Origin: Candidatus Hydrogenedentota bacterium
GTDB lineage: Bacteria; Hydrogenedentota; Hydrogenedentia; Hydrogenedentales; SLHB01
NCBI GenBank assembly: GCA_045863295.1
Contig: BTWA01000028.1
Coordinates: forward strand, 22,228 to 86,227
Length of the DNA: 64,000 nt
Direction of reading: 5' to 3'
A program made the translations under genes and the position numbers. Of this stretch, positions 41,218 through 54,150 are shown piece by piece. The notes below the pieces were generated by a model. The model was not told the DNA's origin and ran no database searches. It saw only the letters and a list, made by a program, of their open reading frames with translations. The first letter of the stretch is position 1, and the number at the start of each line of letters is the position of its first letter.

Positions 41218-42245
41218 GAAAGTCAGTCGGCTTGACAGGTTTCTTGGCTGTCTTGGTGGCAGGTACTATCGCCTGGGAACTGGCCACAACGGGTAGAACG
41301 ACCTTTCTCACAGCTGAGAATGGTAAGAATCTGCTGACGCTAGTTGGGCTTTACGGTATTTTGAGCCTCGGCCAGTCGATCGTCATTATCACCGGGGGTA
41401 TCGATCTTTCCGTCGGCAGTCTGGTTTGCCTTGCGGGGTCTTGCGCTGCTTTATGGATGGACAAGGGAGACGGGACTTCACCCTACATTGCTATCCCCGC
41501 GGTCCTATTCCTGTGCGCTGGCGTGGGCCTATGGCACGGCGTACTCATCACTAAAGCGCGCATGCAACCATTCGTGGTTACACTTTGCAGCCTTTTCTTC
41601 CTGCGTGGGTTTGCGCGGTTGATCACAGAGGACGGCACACAAGGGTTTGGCAGCGCGTTCGAAGGGTTGCGCTGGCTGGGCGGCGGTTCAATTTACGATC
41701 TTATTGGCGGCCGTGCCGACGGCATGGTACCCCCGCCCGAAAGTTTCATTCACATAGCCATGGACCTGATGCCTGCCTCGTTCCTGGTCATGTTGGTGCT
41801 GGCCTTGGTTCTTGGCCTTTACCTGCACCAGTCGCCGCAAGGACGGCACATATTTGCCCTTGGCGCCAATGAAGAGGCGGCCCGTTTCAGCGGAATTCGC
41901 ACGAACCGGCTCAAGTTGATCGCCTACATTGCATGTAGTCTGATATCCGGACTGGGTGGTTTGCTCATGGCATTCAAAAGTAACTCCATTCAGCCCTCCA
42001 ACTTCGGCAGCTTCTATGAGTTGTACGCCATTGCCGGCGCGGTTCTCGGTGGTTGCAGTCTGCGCGGAGGGTCGGGCGTAGTTGTGGGAGTTGTACTTGG
42101 CACCGCGATAATCCGCGTTTTGTACAATATGGTCAATTTGCTGAGCATCCCCAGTCAGTTGGAGTATGTTGTGATTGGTGGTGTAATCCTTGTGGGCGTG
42201 TTCGCCGATGAGGTATTTTCACAGCGGTCACGAACCGCACGTTAG
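41214..42245 (+). CDS. Sugar ABC transporter permease (RbsC-like)
   Basis: ITGGIDLSVGS, GANEEAARFSGI, YELYAIAGAVLGG; GTGA overlap. Confidence 0.9.
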   Translation: MRKSVGLTGFLAVLVAGTIAWELATTGRTTFLTAENGKNLLTLVGLYGILSLGQSIVIITGGIDLSVGSLVCLAGSCAALWMDKGDGTSPYIAIPAVLFLCAGVGLWHGVLITKARMQPFVVTLCSLFFLRGFARLITEDGTQGFGSAFEGLRWLGGGSIYDLIGGRADGMVPPPESFIHIAMDLMPASFLVMLVLALVLGLYLHQSPQGRHIFALGANEEAARFSGIRTNRLKLIAYIACSLISGLGGLLMAFKSNSIQPSNFGSFYELYAIAGAVLGGCSLRGGSGVVVGVVLGTAIIRVLYNMVNLLSIPSQLEYVVIGGVILVGVFADEVFSQRSRTAR

Positions 42246-42276
42246 AACCACGATCGACCGGATCGGACAGAGCCCT

Positions 42277-44529
42277 ATGTCGAATTACGAATACGCCGGA
42301 TACCTGAAATCCATCCTTTACGCTCCAGACCCGGGCGAAGCAGCCAGGGCGGAATCGGTTTTTTTCAGCGCGGACGACATCGCAAAGTGGAGCGTCAAGG
42401 ATTTTGACGTGGAAGCGGAGTGGAAGCGGATTCCAGTCCACCGATCGCGAACGGACCAGGGTGTCCGGTTGGTTGGCCGGTTTGAAGACGTCACCCGAAT
42501 TGATCTGGTGCCCAAAAATGCACCCCGCTTTTGGGTGCCCTTGGGAACGCTCAATCTTCAGGACAACCGCTTTCCCATTGATCTGAACTGGTACCCGATT
42601 CTTGAAGTAACCTACCGGTGCGCGAGCCCGAACGCAAGCCCGTGCTTGGCGTGGACGTATGCCGGAGGAAAGTGTTTGGAATCCCTGCCGGTTACTCAAG
42701 CGATGCGGACGGTGGTCAAGATGCTGCCTTGGAACGGCTTTCCCACTTTCCTGGACAAGCTCGTCTTGCGGCTGTACTCCAATTCCCGTACCACAGAGAC
42801 CCTTGAAGTTGAGTCTATTCGATTCCGCAAGTTGACGCCCGAAGAGCGGGAGGCTTGCGACCGCGATCTTGCCCGCCTGGATTCCACTCCTCGTCCGATG
42901 GCCAAGGAATGCTCGGCGTCGTTCTCGCCACTGGGCGTGACCATGAACGCGGACACGGTGCGCCGCAATGCCCAACTCCTGGGGGTATCGTTAGGCGAGT
43001 ATTGGGATCTGGCGATGGAGGACATCGTCCGTCATCACCACAATGCGGTCATTCTGGATCGAGCCCAGGAGTTGTCGGAACCGGAGTGGTCGGACTTGTT
43101 GTCGACCATGGCGCATCACGGGGTGCGGCTCGTACCTCAACTAAACTTGGACGTTGAGAATGAAGAGTACGTTCGGGAAGCGGTGGAGGCCTACGTCCGG
43201 CCACGAGCCGGCGACGATACCATTCTTGCGTGGCGAGTGAGCGGATGTGATGAAGACACGTCGTTGCACAAGCTGATCGCGCTCCGCAAACTGGTGGACG
43301 AGGCCGACTCGCGGCATCCGCTTGCCATTTGCACACGCGGAATCAACTCATATGCTGCTCTTGCTCCTCATTTTGATATCAGCGGAATCTCGTATGTCGA
43401 ATCGCATTCGCCGTGGCAGTTGGGCGAAGTGGTGCGCACTCACCAGCAATTGTGCAAGGGACAACAGTTCTGGCTCGACGGTCCGGCGTTCGTCTACGCG
43501 ACAGATACGCCGGAGTGGAGTACCTGCCCTGAAATGCGACTGATGGTAAATCTTGCATTTGCCAACGGCGCCCGTGGATGGTTTAGCCATGCATACTGCA
43601 ACGATCCGTTTTGGGTTACTGGCAGTTATCAAAGGACCTTAACCGGGCCCTTTCTCACGTTCAGCGACCTATGGCTGGAATTGGACCGGCGGATGGAGCG
43701 CCTCGCGGCAGTTACGCCGCTGCTGCTGGAAACCGAGCCTGCGTCTATTCCTCGATTGTGGTACGCCCAGAGTTCCATTGCCGAAGACAACTATAAATTG
43801 CCGGAGGGCATGGCGGCCGTAAGCTCTTACCGGCTCAAGGGTCCCGACTTCGACCTCTTTTTTGTGGTCAGCAATGACGTGCGCGGCATGTCCGCGCTGT
43901 ACGCCAACATTCCGCAGGATGCGTTAGAAGGGAATCAAATCTACGACCTGACTGACTTCATGCAAGAGCGGGTATGGAAGCCGATGAATCTTGAGCGCCA
44001 TTTGGAAATGTTTCCGGGGCAAGCGCAGGTGGTATTGCTGGGCCGGCCAGAAGTATGCGATCGGATTCACCACGTGGTGTCGAAGCACCTTATCAATGTG
44101 GATATGCAGCAATTAAATTTCTATTTGAAGATGGCACGCACCTATGGATTGGATATGGGGCCGGTCGAAGATCTCCTAAGCAAAGCTACAACCGGAGACA
44201 CGCTCATTGATCTGGCCATGACCGATCAGGCGCGCGACTTGTTGGTGGACATGATCTACAATACGCCGGACATCTTCCAACCCAGAAGCCATATTATTGA
44301 AATCAGCTCAGCCCTTTGCGCGTGCGACGGTGTCCTCTGCAGGATGATGAGCCGGGGCAAGGTGGAAGAAGCGATGGAATGGGGGCAGCGTGTAATTCCG
44401 CTGGCCCGTGAGGTGACGCGTTACCGCATTGAATTGCGGCGTGGGCTTGGTCACGACATCACCCCGCATACGGCGGATATAGTGAAGCGCACCCATTCAC
44501 TGCTCAATGAGTTACGAAATCTGCGGTGA
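42277..44529 (+). CDS. Large hypothetical protein, possible glycoside hydrolase-like barrel
   Basis: About 750-aa ORF without signal peptide; ILAW.V..DE and LAFANGARG patterns. Confidence 0.6.
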   Translation: MSNYEYAGYLKSILYAPDPGEAARAESVFFSADDIAKWSVKDFDVEAEWKRIPVHRSRTDQGVRLVGRFEDVTRIDLVPKNAPRFWVPLGTLNLQDNRFPIDLNWYPILEVTYRCASPNASPCLAWTYAGGKCLESLPVTQAMRTVVKMLPWNGFPTFLDKLVLRLYSNSRTTETLEVESIRFRKLTPEEREACDRDLARLDSTPRPMAKECSASFSPLGVTMNADTVRRNAQLLGVSLGEYWDLAMEDIVRHHHNAVILDRAQELSEPEWSDLLSTMAHHGVRLVPQLNLDVENEEYVREAVEAYVRPRAGDDTILAWRVSGCDEDTSLHKLIALRKLVDEADSRHPLAICTRGINSYAALAPHFDISGISYVESHSPWQLGEVVRTHQQLCKGQQFWLDGPAFVYATDTPEWSTCPEMRLMVNLAFANGARGWFSHAYCNDPFWVTGSYQRTLTGPFLTFSDLWLELDRRMERLAAVTPLLLETEPASIPRLWYAQSSIAEDNYKLPEGMAAVSSYRLKGPDFDLFFVVSNDVRGMSALYANIPQDALEGNQIYDLTDFMQERVWKPMNLERHLEMFPGQAQVVLLGRPEVCDRIHHVVSKHLINVDMQQLNFYLKMARTYGLDMGPVEDLLSKATTGDTLIDLAMTDQARDLLVDMIYNTPDIFQPRSHIIEISSALCACDGVLCRMMSRGKVEEAMEWGQRVIPLAREVTRYRIELRRGLGHDITPHTADIVKRTHSLLNELRNLR

Positions 44530-44670
44530 CGCAATGGTACCCCTGGCCGGATTCCGGCCCGGAATTACAATACTGCGATTCCCTGGGAACTCTGGCAGCC
44601 AGCCAGACATTGTAATGGGTAGGATCGCCGGATTCAGACTCAATTTACATCCCCCGTGGAGCCAACCCCT

Positions 44671-44699
44671 TTCAACCGCAACGGGTTAGGCGATATACT
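44671..44699 (+). promoter_or_regulatory. Putative sigma70 promoter of the exbB operon
   Basis: TTCAAC-N17-TATACT. Confidence 0.35.
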
Positions 44700-44891
44700 G
44701 TGCCGAAAGAAACCGGAAGTCGATCGGCGAAACCGTAGCCTTTCTGGTGCTTGGCAGGTGGACCGGGATGCCAATGCGGATGGCTGCGCGTACAAGCGAA
44801 CACGGTGGAAGTCCTGCTTGTCCCTAGCCAGATCCGAACTATGGAAAAGAAACTGCATTGGACGTTTCGAATGAGGAAGGAGCGTTGCGCG

Positions 44892-45683
44892 TTGCTTAGA
44901 ATTCCCTTAATCCTTTGGGTCGCCTTGGGGGCGCATTTCTGCGCATGGTCCCATGCGCAGGATATTCCAAATCTGGAATCCGGCACCCCTTCCGAGACCG
45001 CTGCCAGCCAGGAAGCCTCATCGTCCACCGACAATGCCGGTGCCGGTAGCGGATTTGAGGCCATGACCTTGATGGACATGATTCGTGCGGGCGGCGTGAT
45101 TTTGTACGCCATCATGGCGTTGAGTGTCTTTTCGCTGGTTATGGCCGTGTATTACCTGATTACCATAACGCCGGGCAGAGAGGCGCCTTCGTCGCTAATG
45201 AAACGCGCGGTAGCCCAGGTTCGTGCGGGGGATGTTCGAGGCGCATATCAAATGTGTGAGGAACGCGACGAACTGCTGGCGAATGTACTGCGGGCTGGAC
45301 TCAAGATGTATGGGCATGACCGTTTTGTGATCCAAGAGGCGATGGAGAGCGAGGGCGAACGCGGAGCCGCACAACTCTGGCAACGTATTTCCTATCTTAA
45401 CAATGTCGGCGCAATCGCACCATTGTTGGGCCTGTTGGGCACGGTGTGGGGCATGATGGGCGCGTTTGGAACCATCGCATTTAACAACACGGAATCTCGC
45501 GGCGAAGCAATGGCCTATAGCGTGGCGCAGGCCATGGTGACTACTGCCGCGGGCTTGATGCTGGCGATACCGGCTCTTCTCATCTACTACTATCTGCGAG
45601 GCCGTGTGGTCGCCATTGTGTGTTCGGTAGAATCATCTGCGACAGAGATGGTCGAACTACTGGCGCGGAGAAAAGAGGAATGA
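44892..45683 (+). CDS. MotA/TolQ/ExbB proton channel
   Basis: APLLGLLGTVWGM, AMVTTAAGL.LAIP; N-terminal signal/periplasmic extension. Start 44871 or 44892. Confidence 0.92.
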   Translation: MLRIPLILWVALGAHFCAWSHAQDIPNLESGTPSETAASQEASSSTDNAGAGSGFEAMTLMDMIRAGGVILYAIMALSVFSLVMAVYYLITITPGREAPSSLMKRAVAQVRAGDVRGAYQMCEERDELLANVLRAGLKMYGHDRFVIQEAMESEGERGAAQLWQRISYLNNVGAIAPLLGLLGTVWGMMGAFGTIAFNNTESRGEAMAYSVAQAMVTTAAGLMLAIPALLIYYYLRGRVVAIVCSVESSATEMVELLARRKEE

Positions 45684-46102
45684 ATTTTCGTAAGCACAGC
45701 GAGCATGAAGACAGCTCTCTCCAACTGGCACCGCTTATTGACATCGTCTTCTTGACGCTGGTGTTTTTCATGACAACCACGGTTTACTCCTCTCAAGAAC
45801 GCGAAGTGGACATTCAATTACCCACGGCGAGCACCTCTCAGCAAATTGAGCGGGCACGCGGCGAGATTTATATAAACATTCGAGAAGACGGACAGGTTGT
45901 CTTGAACAACCGCGAACTTACCCTCCCCGAATTGCAGGAAGTGTTATTTCAGGTGGCAGAGAGTTTTCCAGGCGGTTCGGTGATTGTTCGCGGCGACAGG
46001 CTTTCTCACTTGGGTGTGGCCCTTGGCGTATTGGACTGTTGCCGCAAAGCCGACATACAAAACGTGTCGTTTGCGGCAGTGCAGGATGAGTATGCGCAAT
46101 AA
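45680..46102 (+). CDS. ExbD/TolR
   Basis: APLIDIVFLTLVFFM with essential Asp; VIVRGD; ATGA overlap. Confidence 0.92.
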   Translation: MNFRKHSEHEDSSLQLAPLIDIVFLTLVFFMTTTVYSSQEREVDIQLPTASTSQQIERARGEIYINIREDGQVVLNNRELTLPELQEVLFQVAESFPGGSVIVRGDRLSHLGVALGVLDCCRKADIQNVSFAAVQDEYAQ

Positions 46103-48431
46103 ATTCGGCATTTGGGCGGCGACTGCCCTGATTTTCGCATCCGGGACAGTAGCGTCCTCCGCGCAGGATTCCGCTGAACAGGCCAAGATTGACGTGGCAA
46201 ACAGCTTCTTTGCGTACGGGTTTCACGATATTGCTGCCGAATCGTATCGCGAGTATTTGGATGCGTATCCAGAAGGTGCCTTTGCTACGGCTGCGTGGTA
46301 CCGGCTCGGTGAAAGCGAGTATAACGCGCGTCTATATGATTCCGCGCTGGCGGCGTTTGGCGAGTTGCTCAAGCGTGAGGTCGACACTGAGACAAGACTC
46401 CAAGCCACCCTACGGCGAGGCGAGATCCTCTACCGACTGGAACGACCGGACGAGGCTGTCCCTGTGCTCGAGTCTTTGGTGGGGCCCGACATTACAAGCG
46501 ATGTCCGGGCCGGGGCGTTGTACTACCTGGGCAAACTCCGATTTGACGGCGGCGATCCCGCGGCGGCCGCGAATGCATTGCAGATGCTCATCCAGGAAAT
46601 ACCAGAGACTCCCCTGGTTCCGTATGCCCGGTATCAGTTGGGCATGGTCCTACTGGCGCAGAATGCACTCGATTCTGCGGCGGCGGAATTCGCGGCGGTA
46701 TCAGCGTCAGATGCAGATTCCACGCTTCGAATGGAGAGTCTGTTTCGCGCGGCAGAAACCTACGATAGGCTCGGCTGGTTCGATGCTGCTGAAAAGACTT
46801 ACCGGCAACTGCAAACGGATTTCCCGGAATCCGTATACGCGGAACGGGCAGCGTACGGATATGCATGGGCTTTGTTTCACGCCGGCAAGTTTGATCAGTC
46901 TCGCGCGTCGGCCGCTGACTTTGCGAAGAAATACCCGCAATCCGAATTTGTCGCAGGAATGCGCTACCTGGAGGCCAATTGCGTTCAACAGTCCAAGGAC
47001 TACAACGCAGCGCTCGAACTGTATCAATCGGTGCAGGCGGACTTTCCAAAGTCTCCCTTTGCTCCGCGTGCGGCGCAGAAGGCCTGCTGGGTACTCTACT
47101 TGAGCGGCAAACGCGAAGAGTCCAAACAAGCTGTATCTGCTTTTCTAAATGCACATCGGGATACCGAACATGTCGGGGATGCGGCATTCTTGATGGGGCT
47201 GCTGCTCGCCGACGAAGGCCTGTTTGAGGGAGCCTTTCAAGAATTCCGGCTGGTTTCAGAGAAGTATCCGAACAGCGAATTTGCAGCGGACGCCTTGTAT
47301 AAAATGGGCGAGACCCTCTCGCAATTGCAGCGAATGGATGAGGCCGCCAAGGTTTTCAAAGCCTTCGCGCAACAGTATCCGGACAGCCCTTTGGCCGAGG
47401 ATGCGATACTGCGCGTGGGTGACGCCAAGTTTTTTGCGGCGTCATTCCAGGATGCGGTGAGCGAGTATAAGGCCATTTTGGCCGGTGCACCGGATCCGTA
47501 TAAAGAGGAAGAAACGCTGTACCGGCTGGCGATCACGTATCACAATATGCGCGATTTCAAGGCCAGTACCGACACATTTCGCACGATACTGGAGAAGTTT
47601 CCGGAGAGCCGCTATCGCGCCGAGGCGCGCGTGCGGATCGGCGACTATTTGGCGCGCGAAGGAAACGATCCCGTCAAGGCAGTGGAGTCGTACGAAGCCT
47701 CGCTTGCGATCGAACCCGACGGCGCGTACGCCGGGCGCGCCATGAAAGGCATCGCCCTGACCCGCTATGAGACCAAGGATTTGGACGGCGCAGCGGAGAT
47801 CTTCTTGCGCTTGATGAAGGAGTTTCCGGCGGAGAAATTGAATGAGCAGTCGTATCGCTGGACGGCGCAATACTTGCTCGACGCGCAGCGATGGGACGAT
47901 GCCATCACCGCGCTGAAAGCTTTACTGGAAGCATTTCCCGACTATCCAAATCCGGAACGCGTACGGCTCGAGATCGCAAAGTGCAACGAATTTGCCGGGC
48001 GGACGGACGAGGCGCTCGATCAATTCGAAGTGGTGGTAAAAGAAGCGCCGCGTAGTTCGTCGGCAGTCGAGGCCACCTACCGCGTGGCGCGGATACACGA
48101 GGATCGGAAAGACCTGGACAAGGCCTTGAAGTACTATGAAGAGGCTGCCAGCACCAATACGGGAGACACCGCAGCCCGCGCACGATTCCGGCAGGCAGAA
48201 CTGCTGGAACAACGCGAGAATTTCGAGGACGCGGCAAAGAGCTACTTGCTGGTTGCCATATTGTTTCTGCATCAGGAACTGTCGCCTGAATCGTTGATCC
48301 GCGCGGGACGTTGTTTTGAACAGGCAAACCGAATGGATCAGGCTCGAAAGGCGTATGAAGGGTTGGTCAAAGACTTTCCCGACAGCCCGCAGGCGGAAAA
48401 GGCCAAGGCTCGTTTGACTGAGTTGGGTTGA
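46086..48431 (+). CDS. Periplasmic multi-TPR protein (CpoB/YbgF-like repeats)
   Basis: Signal peptide, many TPRs with YP.S/FP.S turns; overlaps exbD. Confidence 0.85.
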   Translation: MSMRNKFGIWAATALIFASGTVASSAQDSAEQAKIDVANSFFAYGFHDIAAESYREYLDAYPEGAFATAAWYRLGESEYNARLYDSALAAFGELLKREVDTETRLQATLRRGEILYRLERPDEAVPVLESLVGPDITSDVRAGALYYLGKLRFDGGDPAAAANALQMLIQEIPETPLVPYARYQLGMVLLAQNALDSAAAEFAAVSASDADSTLRMESLFRAAETYDRLGWFDAAEKTYRQLQTDFPESVYAERAAYGYAWALFHAGKFDQSRASAADFAKKYPQSEFVAGMRYLEANCVQQSKDYNAALELYQSVQADFPKSPFAPRAAQKACWVLYLSGKREESKQAVSAFLNAHRDTEHVGDAAFLMGLLLADEGLFEGAFQEFRLVSEKYPNSEFAADALYKMGETLSQLQRMDEAAKVFKAFAQQYPDSPLAEDAILRVGDAKFFAASFQDAVSEYKAILAGAPDPYKEEETLYRLAITYHNMRDFKASTDTFRTILEKFPESRYRAEARVRIGDYLAREGNDPVKAVESYEASLAIEPDGAYAGRAMKGIALTRYETKDLDGAAEIFLRLMKEFPAEKLNEQSYRWTAQYLLDAQRWDDAITALKALLEAFPDYPNPERVRLEIAKCNEFAGRTDEALDQFEVVVKEAPRSSSAVEATYRVARIHEDRKDLDKALKYYEEAASTNTGDTAARARFRQAELLEQRENFEDAAKSYLLVAILFLHQELSPESLIRAGRCFEQANRMDQARKAYEGLVKDFPDSPQAEKAKARLTELG

Positions 48432-48453
48432 GGCGCTTTTGCGAGATAGCACG

Positions 48454-50220
48454 ATGTCCGATAAGCGAACCATCTTGATTGCCAGCGTCACGATATCCAT
48501 CGTGGCTCACGGCCTATTGTTGATTGCCGCGCCCCATGTAGACATGTTGGGGGCAAGCGCCTCGCCGGTGCCTCGACGACCGCTGATTCATGTGCAGTTG
48601 GTCGATGATGTACTTGCGCGCAATATGCCGGGCGATAGCGATGATTCTCTCCGTAATCTCGCGACAAGGCCCGGCACCATCGCGGATTTGTTATCGCAAC
48701 AAACCGAGACTCTGACACCTTCAAATCCGGCCCGGGTGGAGATTCCAAGGTTGACCGAACGCATTGTCCAGGATCCACTCCCTCTGCCCCCGTCGCCAGA
48801 GACGGATGAGGGTGTGTTGCGGCAGTTTGACAGTAAGATTATTGAGATCTCCGAGTCTCTAGCACGTGAAAATGTCGAAGTCGCCCGCCGACTTGTGCAA
48901 CCTGGCTTAGACCGAATTGTCGCGACGGACGAAGACCCCGTATTGCGCACGCCTGCAACTGAAATGGTGGATGAAGTCTTATTCATCGATCCGTTGAAAC
49001 CCGGCATCGGCCTGGAAGGACCGGGTGGGACTGTCAAAGGTGAGACTGGGAGCGATATGGATCGCCTATTGGAATATCCGGCCAAGCTGGAACCCATCCC
49101 TGAAGCATTAGAACCGGTTACAACCTTGCCTGAATTGCCCGTGGATCGTGACGTCGTTAGGTCGCGGGTAATGGAAAACGTGAAGCAGGAACGCCAATAC
49201 GTGGCGATGGACGAATTTGTGGAGATGCGTCTGGACGCGTTTATTCCCCCAGGCGAAAAGGAGGGATTCTTCCGCCTTCGAATTGTCCCCAAGGACGGAA
49301 ATGCGCTTGAAGCACTACCCAAAGACGTGACGTTTGTCATCGACGCGTCGAGCAGCATCCTTCAACGCAAGTTGGATGAGACTGTTGCCGGTGTGGGTAA
49401 ACTGGTGAATGGGCTAAAGGCCGACGATCGCTTCAACGTCGTTGTCTTTCGTGACAATCCATCGCAATTTCACACGGCGCCGGTAGCAGCCACACCTGAG
49501 AACAAGAAAGCGGCATTGGAATTCATCGGCGGTTTGCAAGCACGTGGAGAAACGGACATCTATCAGGCCATGCAACCCGCGATATTAACGCCTCCACGCA
49601 ACGGGATCCCGGGCATTGTACTTGTCATGTCCGATGGACGCCCCACAAAAGGCATCAAGGATGGGCGAGAGATCATTAACGCACTGACCCAGGAGAATGC
49701 ATTGAGGAACAGCATATTCGCTTTTTCTGGCGGACGCACCGTGAATCAATTCATGCTTGACTTGCTTGCCTACCGCAATAAGGGCGAGTGCAAAGTAGTG
49801 CCTCAAGTGGAAAGCATGGCCAGCGAGATGCAATCGTTTTTCGGCCAACTCTCGGACCCTCTGTTGGTAAACTGCAAAGCGGATTATGGCCGCATCGACG
49901 AGGATTCTGTATTTCCTAAAAATTTGCCGGATTTCTACCGCGGCCAGGCGGTCACAATTTATGGACGGTTTGATCCCACGCAGGATCATTCCATTGCCGT
50001 TCGACTTTCGGGCGTTGCGGGCGATGTTAAGAAGGAAGCTGCGTTCGCCGCCGATTTGCGGCAGGCGCAATCGGGCGATGCGGAAATCGCTCGCATGTGG
50101 GCGTTTCGAAAGATTTATGATTTGATTGGTGAAATTGTGCGCCAGGGAGAAGACCCCAAATTGTTGACCGAATTGCGTGAACTCGGCCGCACCTACAATA
50201 TTCGAACCAGTTACGATTAG
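48454..50220 (+). CDS. Membrane-anchored VWA-domain protein with TonB-like SxxxH anchor
   Basis: SIVAH TM helix, Pro-rich linker, MIDAS DASSS..GETD..MSDG. Confidence 0.8.
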   Translation: MSDKRTILIASVTISIVAHGLLLIAAPHVDMLGASASPVPRRPLIHVQLVDDVLARNMPGDSDDSLRNLATRPGTIADLLSQQTETLTPSNPARVEIPRLTERIVQDPLPLPPSPETDEGVLRQFDSKIIEISESLARENVEVARRLVQPGLDRIVATDEDPVLRTPATEMVDEVLFIDPLKPGIGLEGPGGTVKGETGSDMDRLLEYPAKLEPIPEALEPVTTLPELPVDRDVVRSRVMENVKQERQYVAMDEFVEMRLDAFIPPGEKEGFFRLRIVPKDGNALEALPKDVTFVIDASSSILQRKLDETVAGVGKLVNGLKADDRFNVVVFRDNPSQFHTAPVAATPENKKAALEFIGGLQARGETDIYQAMQPAILTPPRNGIPGIVLVMSDGRPTKGIKDGREIINALTQENALRNSIFAFSGGRTVNQFMLDLLAYRNKGECKVVPQVESMASEMQSFFGQLSDPLLVNCKADYGRIDEDSVFPKNLPDFYRGQAVTIYGRFDPTQDHSIAVRLSGVAGDVKKEAAFAADLRQAQSGDAEIARMWAFRKIYDLIGEIVRQGEDPKLLTELRELGRTYNIRTSYD

Positions 50221-50278
50221 TATTCACAGGCCTGCGCGGCCACACACCTCGCAAGACGGAACATGACCGGGGGAAGCC

Positions 50279-51994
50279 TTGCAGACTATTCACGAAGTCC
50301 CACTACATCCAGTCTCCGGATGGATTTCGGCGCTCGCGCAACCAACATTACGCGTACGCCATCAATTCGAATCTGTATGGGGAGGCGACGAGGAAGTCCT
50401 GCATGGCCGCTTGCGACAAGTTCAAAACGCATTGGGTCTCTTTCTCGAACGGTATGGAAATCTGCCGGTCGTTATAGTCCGGTGCCCAGGCCGGATTAAC
50501 CTGCGCGGCATGCATGTCGACACCCACGGCGGCTATCTAAATCTGGTTACTCATCATCGGGAAGCCGTAATCGTTGCATCTCCGACGGAAAATCGGCGTA
50601 TCGAAGTCTGTAATGCGGATGCCACCTATGATCCTGTTGCGTTTGATATGGATGATTCCTGCGTTCCGAAGGGGCACCGTTGGTATTCGTTTATTACATC
50701 CGATGAGATTCGTCAGCGATTAGCAGAGCGCCCGGGATTCTGGGGGCACTATCTGGAAGGCGCGGCTCTTCGCATGCAATACGGTCAGCCGGAAAGGCCG
50801 ATCCGCGGAATGCGGGCAGTCGCTGCAAGTGACATCCCCTGCGGCGCTGGACTCAGCTCATCCACCGCGCTAGTTCTCGCCACCTTGGGCGCGCTTATGC
50901 ATGTGAACGAAGTCGTGTGGAGCCCGAGCGAAACCATTCTCGCCGCCCGCGATAGTGAATGGTACGCAGGTGCGCGCATTGGTGTCAGCGATCAGGCGGC
51001 CATGGTATTGGGCGGCCGCAACAGGCTTTACCATGCGGCGCTTTACGCGGAAGCCCGATCGGCTGACAGTCACGAGGAACCAGCCCTCGAAATCCGCAAT
51101 AGCCGGCATTGCGAATTGCCCGGTGACATGGCCATCCTTGTAGTCAATTCACGTACGAGACGCCACTTGAGCGGTGCGGCCTTGGTTGAGTACACGCAAA
51201 ACCGGTTTGCTTACTCCATGGCGCTCGAAATCCTTCGGCAGGAAATGACACGCGCCGGCGTGGACGCGGAAATTGCCAATCGCTACAACCGCCTTTCCGC
51301 GTTTGATGTAGATGGCCTTGGCATGATCGGCGGCATTTCGAAATTGTACAGCTTGCTAACCGCGGTTCCTCGTTACATCAGCGTTTCCCAGTTGGAATGT
51401 AAGTATCATCTGCCTCGCCTGAATGGCCTGTATATGCAGGCATTTGGTATGTTGCCCGAGCAGTCCCGCCCCACGAACATAAATTTACGTGGACCGCTGT
51501 TATTCGGAATTGCCGAGTCCGAGCGGGCACGCCTTTTCTTTGGCGCGGCTGCCAACCGGGACTGGACGGCCGCCGGTCAATGGATGTCTCTCGGCCACGA
51601 TGGAGACCGGCGCTACGATAGCCTGGGGCTACCTTGGAATTGGGACTGTACGGACTCCCTTATGGAAGCTCTCCAACAGAACGCCACCCCATTGGCCACC
51701 TGCCCCGGACGGTATGGGGCAAGCAGCCGGTTTCTGGACGGTCTGGTGGATGCGGCTATGGAGGCGGGCGCACTGGGGGCATGCCTAACTGGTGCGGGAA
51801 TCGCCGGAAGTGTAATTGCGCTTGTCCGCGCCCAAGAAGTGAATACGGTTGCGGACTGCCTTCGCCGGACCATGGCATCAACCGAATATGCCGCATGGTG
51901 TGGTGGACAGGTGCCCTTGGAAACGGCTGATCTGGCTGATTCCGTTGTTGTAAACCATGCCACGGAAGGCCTTTGCGCCCTACAGGTGCCCTGA
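50279..51994 (+). CDS. GHMP sugar kinase, galactokinase-like (divergent)
   Basis: PGRINLRGMHVD, IPCGAGLSSS, SDQ, LTGAGIAG. Confidence 0.8.
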   Translation: MQTIHEVPLHPVSGWISALAQPTLRVRHQFESVWGGDEEVLHGRLRQVQNALGLFLERYGNLPVVIVRCPGRINLRGMHVDTHGGYLNLVTHHREAVIVASPTENRRIEVCNADATYDPVAFDMDDSCVPKGHRWYSFITSDEIRQRLAERPGFWGHYLEGAALRMQYGQPERPIRGMRAVAASDIPCGAGLSSSTALVLATLGALMHVNEVVWSPSETILAARDSEWYAGARIGVSDQAAMVLGGRNRLYHAALYAEARSADSHEEPALEIRNSRHCELPGDMAILVVNSRTRRHLSGAALVEYTQNRFAYSMALEILRQEMTRAGVDAEIANRYNRLSAFDVDGLGMIGGISKLYSLLTAVPRYISVSQLECKYHLPRLNGLYMQAFGMLPEQSRPTNINLRGPLLFGIAESERARLFFGAAANRDWTAAGQWMSLGHDGDRRYDSLGLPWNWDCTDSLMEALQQNATPLATCPGRYGASSRFLDGLVDAAMEAGALGACLTGAGIAGSVIALVRAQEVNTVADCLRRTMASTEYAAWCGGQVPLETADLADSVVVNHATEGLCALQVP

Positions 51995-52774
51995 CTCTAA
52001 TGCAATGCCTGCCATAACGCCTGTCCTGGCGCGAAACGTCCTGAAAGGGCGGTCTTTTCCCACCCCCCATATTCCGCCATAAGTTGGCACTGGCATTTGA
52101 CTTTCCTTGACGGTTCCTACCCCATCTGCTAGACTTTCCGACAAATGCGACAAATCCCTGCCGTGTTCGACAAGTTGAGGAAATTTGGAACCTAATATTG
52201 AACTGGGAACCCAATATTTGTTGTAGCTAACGGCAAGCCGCCCAGAGCGGAAGTCGATCGGCTATCGTGAGGGTTCCCCCTTGGTGGATGGGTTCAATAG
52301 AATTTCCTCGCTACCGGCACAGGGCGGGGCAGCATTTTGAAGGCAGATTTCACCACGCGTCGCGCGTGGTGAAATTTGCTTGTCCACCCGCCATCGTGTG
52401 GCACGAGTGGGCAACGATTGAGGTACGGTTCACGGATTGCCAGTCTTGGAATTGCTGCTATTCTTGACCAAACTTGATCGAATCGGCGCGTAGTTCATTT
52501 TTTTCACAGACGAATCAGCACAAGATGAAGGGGTGGGGATCTATTTGTCCACAACAAAATGATGTGTAGATGAATCATTTTTGTCGAATATATTAGTTAG
52601 CGCACTTTGTATATTATTTGTAATTTTTATTTTGTCCCTTCCGTGTTATAATTTGATTGTCAAAGCTGCAAGCAGGGGCTTTCGGTTGCGTAAATTCCGA
52701 TGGCCCCTAGAATTACTTCAGTACCGCAATGTGGGTCAGCGATTTGTGGGTGCATAAAAAGGACAAGATAAGTC

Positions 52775-52803
52775 TTGACAAAATCTCATATTATTGCTAA
52801 CAT
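52775..52803 (+). promoter_or_regulatory. Sigma70-like promoter of the pil operon
   Basis: TTGACA-N17-TAACAT with extended -10 TG. Confidence 0.6.
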
Positions 52804-52908
52804 CAAAACGATACAGACCTCTATGGGCGAAGCCTTGGAGTGCGCGCGAATGCTGTGGGGTGTTCGCGTATCGGGGCGCAACCGGCTGCTTAGCGGCCTT
52901 GAGGTTGT

Positions 52909-54150
52909 TTGAACGTGCTGTTCGCAAAACCCACCAAGGCAATAGGCCTCGATGTCGGGACGCATTCCGTAAAGGCCGTCCAGATGTCCAAGGCGAGTGG
53001 TCGCTTACGCGTTGAACGCGTAGGGTACGCCTTGATTGATCGAGGCGAGTTCAACCTCGATCCGGTTCGTGCCCAGGCAATGGCTGTTCGAGAAGCATTG
53101 CGCGTTATCCCCACCAATCAATCTATTGTACTGGGCGCTCTGCCCGGCCAAACAGTTGTCATACGTTATCCCCGGCTACAAGATCTGCCCGACAATCAAT
53201 TGTCAGCGGCGGTAGAGAAAGAGGCGGGGCAAAATATCCCTTATGAATTGTCGGAAGTATTTCTTGACTGGTCGCCCCTCGCGAAAATCACCGAAGGCAA
53301 CAAGACCCTTAACAAAGTATTGTTGGTGGCGGCTCGATACGAAATTATTGACTCGCGTGTGCAAGTGGCGGAAGAGGCTGGAATTCAGTTTTCCACGTTG
53401 GGTGTGGACAGCCTGGCACTTGCGGACGCGGCGGAAGCGTGCGACTTTCTACGCGTGGGCGAATCGGTTGCCATGGTCAACCTGGGCAGTTCGAGCACCA
53501 GTATTCATTTTGTGAAAGACGGCGTCTCGAATTTCATCCGAGACGTAAACTGGGGTGCGCGCGAGTTGCTACAGGCCATTATGAAAGCGCGCCGGTGCGA
53601 ATTTGCGGAGGCGGAACGTCTGCTTCAGGCGAGCAGTGTGCCGGAGCCGATTCCAGCCCCGCCCCCGCTTCCAGGGCAAAGCGCTCCGGAGTCCGCGGAA
53701 CCGGAAAAGCCGGCCGCGCCTTCGGGTGGAAATTTGCTGGACCCCTTGGATGATGAATTGGGTGCGTTGGGGGCTCTGGGGGATTTGGCGGCCGAACCCG
53801 CACCGGCAGCCGCACCCACGAAACCGCAGCCGCAAGAAAAGTCGATAGACGAACTTATTTCTCTTCCCCTGGCCAAGCTGGTCAGCGAGTTGCGCCGCTC
53901 TTTTGACTATTACGAGCAGCAATTGTACGAACAGCCGGTGGATCGGCTGATTCTGAGCGGAGGTTCCGCCGAATTGCCGCTGGTGCACAACATGCTTGCG
54001 GAAGAATTGAGCATACCGGTTGAAGTGGCCGATCCTTCGCAAAGCGCGATATACCTGAACGAGGAGTCGCAGGTGTATCCGATGTTGGAGCATCCACCGC
54101 AGTTTATGGTTGCGGTGGGGCTCGCAGCGCGTGGAGTGGCAGAACTATGA
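52909..54150 (+). CDS. pilM: Type IV pilus assembly protein PilM
   Basis: IGLDVGTHSVK actin-like fold, VLLVAA, RRSFDYY, ILSGG, VAVGLAAR. Confidence 0.93.
   Translation: MNVLFAKPTKAIGLDVGTHSVKAVQMSKASGRLRVERVGYALIDRGEFNLDPVRAQAMAVREALRVIPTNQSIVLGALPGQTVVIRYPRLQDLPDNQLSAAVEKEAGQNIPYELSEVFLDWSPLAKITEGNKTLNKVLLVAARYEIIDSRVQVAEEAGIQFSTLGVDSLALADAAEACDFLRVGESVAMVNLGSSSTSIHFVKDGVSNFIRDVNWGARELLQAIMKARRCEFAEAERLLQASSVPEPIPAPPPLPGQSAPESAEPEKPAAPSGGNLLDPLDDELGALGALGDLAAEPAPAAAPTKPQPQEKSIDELISLPLAKLVSELRRSFDYYEQQLYEQPVDRLILSGGSAELPLVHNMLAEELSIPVEVADPSQSAIYLNEESQVYPMLEHPPQFMVAVGLAARGVAEL

Follow-up and report, generated by a model that had tools for sequence, protein, structure and literature searches.

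What is a proton-driven motor doing beside a gene for a von Willebrand factor type A (VWA) protein and a gene for a tetratricopeptide repeat (TPR) protein in a bacterium whose genome has no Ton system? The question is raised by a four-gene operon in a 64,000-nucleotide stretch of DNA from a Candidatus Hydrogenedentota bacterium (GenBank assembly GCA_045863295.1, contig BTWA01000028.1, positions 22,228 to 86,227 of the forward strand), a stretch that is called the window below and whose own numbering is used throughout. The answer proposed here, to which we assign a probability of roughly 0.7, is that the four genes code for a self-contained envelope machine, powered by the proton motive force and of the recently described kind called "vWA force transducers", in which the VWA protein would work much as TonB or TolA does. 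A preliminary description of the operon, made from the DNA letters alone, had already proposed a motor module separate from Ton and Tol, and its claims are taken up where the results bear on them.

The four genes all lie on the + strand, in the order ExbB-like, ExbD-like, TPR and VWA, and run from 44871 or 44892 (depending on the start chosen for the first gene) to 50220 with nearly no spacing. The first junction is an ATGA overlap (45680-45683), the second a 17-bp overlap (46086-46102) and the third a 22-bp gap (48432-48453), just as the preliminary description had stated. The start that it gave for the ExbB-like gene, a TTG at 44892, is probably too late. An in-frame ATG at 44871 or 44841 is probably the true start and yields a signal peptide, and a signal peptide was also visible in all 24 of the ExbB ortholog N-termini that were compared. 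The features of the operon are as follows.

44871..45683, + strand: ExbB/TolQ-like stator subunit, in which a signal peptide is followed by a low-complexity N-terminal extension on the periplasmic side.
45680..46102, + strand: ExbD/TolR-like stator subunit, in a single copy, with the transmembrane Asp.
46086..48431, + strand: secreted TPR protein of 781 amino acids, with a signal peptide and eight CpoB/YbgF-type modules.
48454..50220, + strand: putative vWA-type force transducer of 588 amino acids, with an anchor helix, a long linker and an ITIH-like VWA head.
48463..48537, + strand: anchor helix of the VWA protein (residues 4-28) with Ser15-x3-His19, from alignments, distant homologs and a genome-wide control.
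48586..48615, + strand: motor-box-like alternating motif of the VWA protein (residues 45-54, F-R-V-x-L-x-D), from an alignment and distant homologs.
48628..48867, + strand: linker residues 59-138 of the VWA protein, predicted by complex modelling to bind the TPR groove.
49324..49800, + strand: VWA domain (residues 291-449) with a complete metal-ion-dependent adhesion site (MIDAS), comprising the invariant D297-x-S299-x-S301, T367 and D394.

The four genes are kept together well beyond this genome. When 79 related loci were scored by phmmer with the window proteins, the ExbB, ExbD and TPR genes were found upstream of the VWA gene and on the same strand in all 51 Hydrogenedentota-type loci that have at least 3.7 kb of upstream sequence. 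The four-gene arrangement is far beyond chance, and the gene-neighbourhood survey of the VWA gene that had been suggested as a check thus came out in favor of a conserved unit. Clustering of the open reading frames (ORFs) of the 79 loci returned only five recurrent families, i.e. the four operon genes and a GHMP/galactokinase-like kinase that is discussed below. Outside the phylum, five loci have at least 3.7 kb of flanking sequence, and the same order was found in two of them (one from Brocadiia and locus L076, titled 'MAG: bacterium'). Within the phylum, when one genome of each species was searched with a profile (E <= 1e-60), the VWA gene turned up in 123 of 135 genomes, nearly always as one match, and in 85 of the 86 genomes with a completeness of 90% or more and a contamination of 5% or less. 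The preliminary description had also suggested a link to the nearby pilMNOPQ operon (52909 onwards). This suggestion was not supported, in that no pil gene of the window has a counterpart in the 79 related loci.

The first two genes encode the parts of a proton-driven stator. The ExbB-like protein matches the Pfam family MotA_ExbB (E 1.2e-29) and the ExbD-like protein matches the Pfam family ExbD (E 1.6e-21). The two transmembrane threonines reported earlier for the ExbB-like protein align with the pore threonines of the solved TolQ (8odt) and ExbB (5sv0) structures, and the aspartate reported as essential in the ExbD-like protein is indeed transmembrane and matches the position of the E. coli ExbD and TolR residue. 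Between its signal peptide and its first membrane helix the ExbB-like protein carries a Pro/Ala-rich stretch. The NCBIfam scores of the pair tilt slightly toward tolQ/tolR over exbB/exbD (for the ExbB-like protein, tolQ 82.3 bits with a cut-off of 221 and exbB 59.8 bits with a cut-off of 206; for the ExbD-like protein, tolR 48.7 bits with a cut-off of 127.3). The solved TolQ and ExbB structures score nearly equally against the ExbB-like protein (52.3 and 52.0 bits), so the structure match does not classify the pair.

The motor was also placed on a tree of ExbB proteins. Its 38 rows comprised the E. coli TolQ, ExbB and MotA references, the paralogues of the same genome, paralogues from four other genomes that carry the vWA system, and 18 vWA-linked ExbBs; there was no AglR row. 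Fifteen of the vWA-linked rows form one clade (support 92/96), whose titled members are labelled Hydrogenedentota or, for some uncultured metagenome-assembled genomes, Nitrospirota. This clade is separate from the E. coli TolQ/ExbB group, from the MotA group and from the groups formed by the paralogues on contigs C8 and C35 of the same genome, so that the phylogeny proposed earlier as a check, as far as TolQ and ExbB are concerned, sets the motor apart from the E. coli proteins of both kinds. By this sequence comparison, the vWA-linked motor is its own lineage within the phylum. Outside the 15-row clade the picture is looser: the Brocadiia row and one other fall beside it with weak support, the ExbB of locus L076 is placed without support, and the vWA-linked label needs two changes on the tree, with a single change in 16% of bootstrap trees. 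The Brocadiia ExbB-like protein (L083:3201-4235), which belongs to the same four-gene cluster, has an N-terminal IPT/TIG (Ig-like) domain before its MotA_ExbB domain.

The VWA protein is likely the force transducer of this motor, built like TonB or TolA, rather than a mere neighbour, because it has a Ser-x3-His helix of its own, a linker and a MIDAS-bearing VWA head. It had been described earlier as a membrane-anchored VWA protein, and this was borne out by the N-terminal helix and the VWA domain (Pfam VWA_3, VWA and VWA_2, residues 291-448), while the transducer features had been missed. The nearest relatives are 43-51% identical over the full length, and the named ones are from Candidatus Hydrogenedentes. 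Of 20 aligned orthologs, 19 have His19 and 16 have Ser15, with Ala or Thr in the rest, and the Ser-x3-His spacing is the same as in E. coli TonB (S16/H20) and TolA (S18/H22; K-12 record). The pair of residues was also found in all six of the distant homologs for which the N-terminus is available, which come from Verrucomicrobiia, Victivallales, Brocadiia, another member of Planctomycetota and locus L076. A control with the organism's own genome indicates how unusual this feature is: of 13,049 ORFs of at least 120 amino acids, a hydrophobic 19-mer occurs within the first 110 residues in 2304, and only 23 of these have Ser-x3-His within that N-terminal hydrophobic segment. The 23 include the TolA-like protein of this genome, a second TonB_2 protein and a 274-residue protein behind the ExbBD pair on contig C8. 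About 20 residues past the helix, at the position of a strand in TonB and TolA, the VWA protein carries the F-R-V-x-L-x-D motif, which is kept in the distant homologs; the strand at that TonB/TolA position has been termed the motor box (PMC12204202). No TonB_2 or TolA domain was found in the VWA protein with Pfam.

The predicted structure fits this division into anchor, linker and head. An AlphaFold2 (AF2) monomer model shows a confident helix at residues 4-28, then a low-confidence linker extending to about residue 245, and a confident globular part at residues 249-588; the linker thus amounts to some 220 residues with a low predicted local distance difference test score (pLDDT). In a Foldseek search with the globular part, the best match was ITIH1 (6fpy, E 1.5e-23), followed by other VWA proteins, integrin beta subunits and pilus adhesins. 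Residues ~250-588 resemble ITIH1 in having a MIDAS-bearing VWA domain set in a beta-sandwich frame, whereas ITIH1 is a eukaryotic, secreted protein of 19% identity that lacks a membrane anchor and a motor. The MIDAS residues D297, S299, S301, T367 and D394 are invariant in alignments of 20 and of 31 sequences, and the DxSxS motif is kept in seven of seven distant homologs. Two further conserved stretches may be mentioned here. Linker residues 145-162 (48886-48939) carry a near-invariant R145-R146-x-V148-x-P150...R...P162 motif, and the extreme C-terminus (50197-50217) carries a Y-x-[IVL]-x-T/A-x-Y motif that is kept even in the homologs from other phyla, at ~33% identity.

The third gene encodes a secreted periplasmic TPR protein, as had been claimed, with a length of 781 amino acids in place of the 780 given earlier. 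It has a signal peptide, lacks a lipobox Cys and matches many Pfam TPR families (e.g. TPR_6 with E 8e-59, TPR_16 and YfiO). The NCBIfam model tol_pal_ybgF (TIGR02795) scores 295.5 bits (cut-off 90.1) over eight stretches of the protein, and in BLASTP the TPR domain of E. coli CpoB aligns repeatedly along it (best E 8e-12). Because of these eight stretches and the repeated CpoB matches, the protein is read from its sequence as a chain of eight CpoB/YbgF-type modules. It is not a CpoB equivalog, since the corresponding model (NF008068) gives 138 bits with a cut-off of 383.

A complex prediction connects this protein to the presumed transducer. The preliminary description had called for a multimer prediction of the TPR protein with the VWA protein, and it was run here with the mature TPR protein (residues 26-781) and the VWA linker (residues 30-250), using alignments of 31 rows each from the same loci. 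Three runs scored 0.63, 0.63 and 0.62, and the best of three controls scored 0.01. A score of 0.63 is reached by 116 of 157 solved complexes and by 2 of 215 mismatched pairs, a calibration that holds only roughly here because the alignments were custom-built. At least 23% of the contacts agree among the three runs. In the model, linker residues 59-138 lie inside the TPR solenoid in antiparallel orientation, with predicted contacts between linker 117-132 and TPR 146-217 and between linker 97-104 and TPR 332-402. Conserved TPR residues (Ala, Gly, Leu and Pro set aside) are enriched at the predicted interface (22 of 70, with 7.2 expected, p 2e-7), but this enrichment cannot count as separate evidence, since conservation is general in the grooves of TPR proteins and the alignment had been given to the model. 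The modelling therefore supports, but does not show, that the TPR protein binds residues 59-138 of the VWA linker.

The class to which the operon appears to belong was described by Williams-Jones et al. (2025, Mol Biol Evol; PMC12204202), who, working from sequences and models, reported "vWA force transducers" encoded beside tolQR-like and TPR genes, with Tichowtungia aerotolerans as the type example and a range that includes Proteobacteria, Planctomycetes, Verrucomicrobia, Bacteroidetes and Rhodothermaeota. Their AlphaFold3 (AF3) models place the membrane helix docked on the motor. The window operon shares with that class a Ser/His membrane helix and a C-terminal vWA fold, as well as the position of the VWA gene beside tolQ-like, tolR-like and TPR genes, and its low-pLDDT linker with the motor-box-like motif may correspond to the disordered linker and motor-box strand of the class; the likeness to the Tichowtungia system was judged by its published description and not by its sequences. 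There are also differences. The window operon has one tolR-like gene, whereas in the Planctomycetes-Verrucomicrobia-Chlamydiae group a heterologous pair is said to be found "often", and only half of the SHLS motif is kept here, the full motif being attributed in the paper to "many" members only. Moreover, the available text of PMC12204202 does not describe the TPR partner as an array of CpoB modules or as a linker binder. Hydrogenedentota receive no mention in the main text of that paper and six in its supplement, all in a tol-pal search that is unfinished. In our own literature search no paper joined Hydrogenedentes with ExbB, and vWA/TolQ force transducers were found only in PMC12204202. On its sequence features, the window operon is a further example of this published class, which it would extend to Hydrogenedentota.

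In Myxococcus, the Agl-Glt gliding machinery combines an ExbBD-type motor with TPR proteins and a VWA adhesin, CglB. By analogy, the motor studied here might drive the VWA protein or a partner adhesin for surface movement. VWA heads serve as adhesion modules, pilus adhesins and integrins are among the matches of the fold search, a PilT-like ATPase is encoded upstream in 13 of 43 loci (see below), and gliding is the role suggested for the class in PMC12204202. We nevertheless regard a gliding or adhesion machine as unlikely. No Glt homologues were found among the conserved neighbours, the only match being one to GltC at 17.9 bits with a cut-off of 450. In addition, CglB is an outer-membrane surface adhesin, whereas the window VWA protein is anchored in the inner membrane and not secreted, and a near-universal gene that is almost always in single copy fits housekeeping better than accessory motility.

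The remaining force-transduction parts of the genome (6.3 Mb, 96% complete) make it possible to ask whether the operon is simply this organism's Ton or Tol system. There were no matches genome-wide to the TonB C-terminal domain (PF03544) or to the Plug domain of TonB-dependent receptors (PF07715). Four loci of the MotA/ExbB family were found, namely the flagellar MotAB on contig C4, ExbB-ExbD pairs on C8 and C35, and the window operon. A TolA-like protein adjoins TolB on C5, with no adjacent tolQR, and on C9 a gene for a YbgF-type TPR protein comes after one with an OmpA domain, an arrangement of the Pal-CpoB kind. The genome has seven OmpA-family matches, none of them on the window's contig. 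The earlier observation that the window contains no TonB-dependent receptor, TolB or Pal holds.

The comparison with Tol-Pal reveals both kinship and distance. The window operon resembles it in its stator family, the Ser-x3-His anchor of its candidate transducer, a CpoB-type TPR partner and frequent adjacency to division genes. It departs from it in having a VWA head instead of TolA domain III, no TolB or Pal in the operon (the TolA-TolB and Pal-CpoB loci being separate), a TPR protein of 781 amino acids and eight modules compared to the 263 amino acids of E. coli CpoB, and a motor pair that does not reach the tolQ and tolR model cut-offs. With Ton it shares the stator family and the Ser-x3-His anchor, and its motor-box-like motif may form the corresponding strand, in contrast to which stand the VWA head and a genome without TonB C-terminal or Plug domains. 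Taken together, the absence of Ton domains, the Tol-Pal parts on other contigs, the 51/51 synteny and the separate ExbB clade support the view that the module is an extra system, neither the organism's Ton nor its Tol, in agreement with the separate motor module first proposed.

A rival reading starts from the C5 locus. Since it lacks tolQR beside its TolA and TolB genes, and since the NCBIfam scores of the window pair lean toward tolQ/tolR, the pair might serve the TolA-like or TonB_2 proteins encoded elsewhere, and the TPR and VWA genes might be independent neighbours, e.g. a Bat-like pair. Against this improbable arrangement stand the 51/51 synteny, the VWA protein's own Ser-x3-His anchor, the predicted TPR-linker binding, and the existence of two other ExbBD pairs, one of which has a higher tolQ score (119 bits). 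The Bat (BatA-E) VWA/TPR operon was itself considered and rejected, in that BatC scores 29.2 bits with a cut-off of 175 and neither MoxR nor DUF58 occurs in the conserved set.

If the operon is a vWA force transducer system, as we favor, the machine can be pictured as follows. Gene content, motifs, folds, conservation and synteny are matters of direct observation, and from them we infer the coupling of stator and transducer, the binding of linker by the TPR protein, and the transduction of force. The ExbB-like and ExbD-like proteins would form a stator of the TolQR/ExbBD type in the inner membrane. The VWA protein would be its client, docking via the Ser-x3-His helix and offering its motor-box-like strand to ExbD, and its linker of about 220 residues would cross the periplasm. 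The integrin/ITIH-like head, with its intact MIDAS, would then grip a ligand in the outer envelope through a metal ion, and the eight-module TPR protein would wrap linker residues 59-138 in its groove, serving the transducer as a sheath, a ruler or a regulator.

A number of results weigh against this picture. In three of the five loci from other phyla with sufficient flanking sequence (Verrucomicrobiia and Victivallales), neither motor nor TPR gene lies beside the VWA gene, and no gene for an outer-membrane partner was found in the conserved neighbourhood of the 79 loci. The second half of the SHLS motif, its Leu and its last Ser, is absent: Ala26 and Asp30 stand at His+7 and His+11, where the family consensus is Ala-Pro. 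The AF2 monomer does not fold the motor-box-like motif into a strand. The linker reaches a pLDDT of only 43-46 in the complex model, so that its own fold is uncertain, and no enrichment of conserved linker residues was seen at the predicted interface (3 of 10, with 2.4 expected, p 0.43); residues 145-162, which are strongly conserved, fall outside the confident part of that interface. Finally, according to PMC12204202 no deletion phenotypes have been reported for the class.

What the machine might do for the cell can only be guessed at, and the guess that we prefer, tentatively, is a Tol-like housekeeping job in envelope integrity or cell division. The guess is prompted by the near-universal single copy of the VWA gene, the CpoB-type partner and an adjacency to ftsZ. 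Among the 43 loci in which the DNA upstream of exbB reaches 2.8 kb or more, 17 have ftsZ no further than 4.5 kb upstream on that strand, in most cases after ftsQ and a Mur ligase gene, and a PilT-like ATPase gene lies between ftsZ and exbB in 13 of the 43. The 17 loci with ftsZ are scattered over the ExbB clade, which argues that the arrangement is probably old. The adjacency is missing in the other 26 loci and in the genome studied here, where the Mur ligase, ftsQ, ftsZ and pilT-like genes form a block at C46:1121-5804 that stops about 1.1 kb short of the end of the contig, and the operon lies in the middle of contig C28. These gaps also count against the housekeeping guess, and inherited gene order could by itself explain the adjacency, which is why the guess is held no more firmly. 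Slightly more doubtful still is a fuller version, in which the operon would be a third housekeeping force-transduction system of diderm envelopes beside Ton and Tol, ancestral and near-essential in Hydrogenedentota and tied to division, the CpoB-like sheath threading and gating the linker and the motor pulling a metal-dependent VWA clasp, bound to a ligand of the outer envelope, as the cell constricts.

The fifth recurrent family of the conserved neighbourhood is represented in the window by the gene directly behind the operon.

50279..51994, + strand: GHMP-family galactokinase-like kinase of 571 amino acids (Pfam GHMP_kinases_N/C and GalKase_gal_bdg), whose membership in the system is uncertain.

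The kinase gene lies downstream of the VWA gene in 41 of the 58 Hydrogenedentota-type loci with at least 1.9 kb of downstream sequence and in none of the eight loci from other phyla. The enzyme is cytoplasmic, and its reading frame often overlaps or abuts the VWA gene. In three of the eight loci from other phyla, a Wzy_C (O-antigen-ligase-like) gene adjoins the VWA gene (L076:9010-10362, L083:9995-11305 and L085:1784-3718), with an overlap between the two genes in L085. Such neighbours could be taken to mean that the machine energises import or export, with the VWA head opening or unplugging an outer-membrane channel or secretin, in the way TonB acts on its receptors, or else acting on the assembly of a surface glycan, and a genome without TonB and TonB-dependent receptors leaves room for some other energised process at the outer membrane. 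The odds of this seem low to us: no conserved gene for an outer-membrane channel is nearby, the kinase acts in the cytoplasm and is missing from the loci of other phyla, and the Wzy_C neighbour was not found in the Hydrogenedentota set.

To our knowledge, the characterised uses of 5:2 proton motors are limited to Ton, Tol, the flagellar stator and a few others. If the proposed reading is true, a transducer tipped with a VWA domain would add a new motor output, namely a metal-dependent clasp instead of strand addition. Hydrogenedentota would provide a clean test case, with a single copy in nearly every genome and, in the genome studied, no Ton system, and the reading makes testable predictions about the contact of His19, the TPR groove on linker residues 59-138, the ligand of the MIDAS and a possible role in division. 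Because the class has already been published, these results are of value because they extend and sharpen it, not as a discovery; what is new here is the conservation across the phylum, the lack of Ton in the genome, the TPR partner built as a CpoB array, the predicted TPR-linker complex and the adjacency to the division cluster.

A few observations from the surroundings of the operon and from elsewhere in the genome remain. A scan of 44300-53000 for promoters and terminators returned numbers near expectation (5 promoter-like sites, with 6.0 expected, and 8 terminator-like sites, with 8.6 expected) and so does not inform the limits of the operon. For the ORF directly upstream (42190-44529, 779 amino acids), neither Pfam nor NCBIfam gave a match, and the related loci contain no counterpart of it. 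On contig C8 (L086:4231-6187), the ExbB-ExbD pair is followed by the 274-residue protein mentioned above (P0122), which has a Ser-x3-His N-terminal helix and no Pfam or NCBIfam match, and which, by its sequence, may be a further transducer whose C-terminal domain has yet to be described. At C45:34596-35923, two adjacent paralogous ORFs of about 200 amino acids each have S-x3-H where an N-terminal hydrophobic helix begins.

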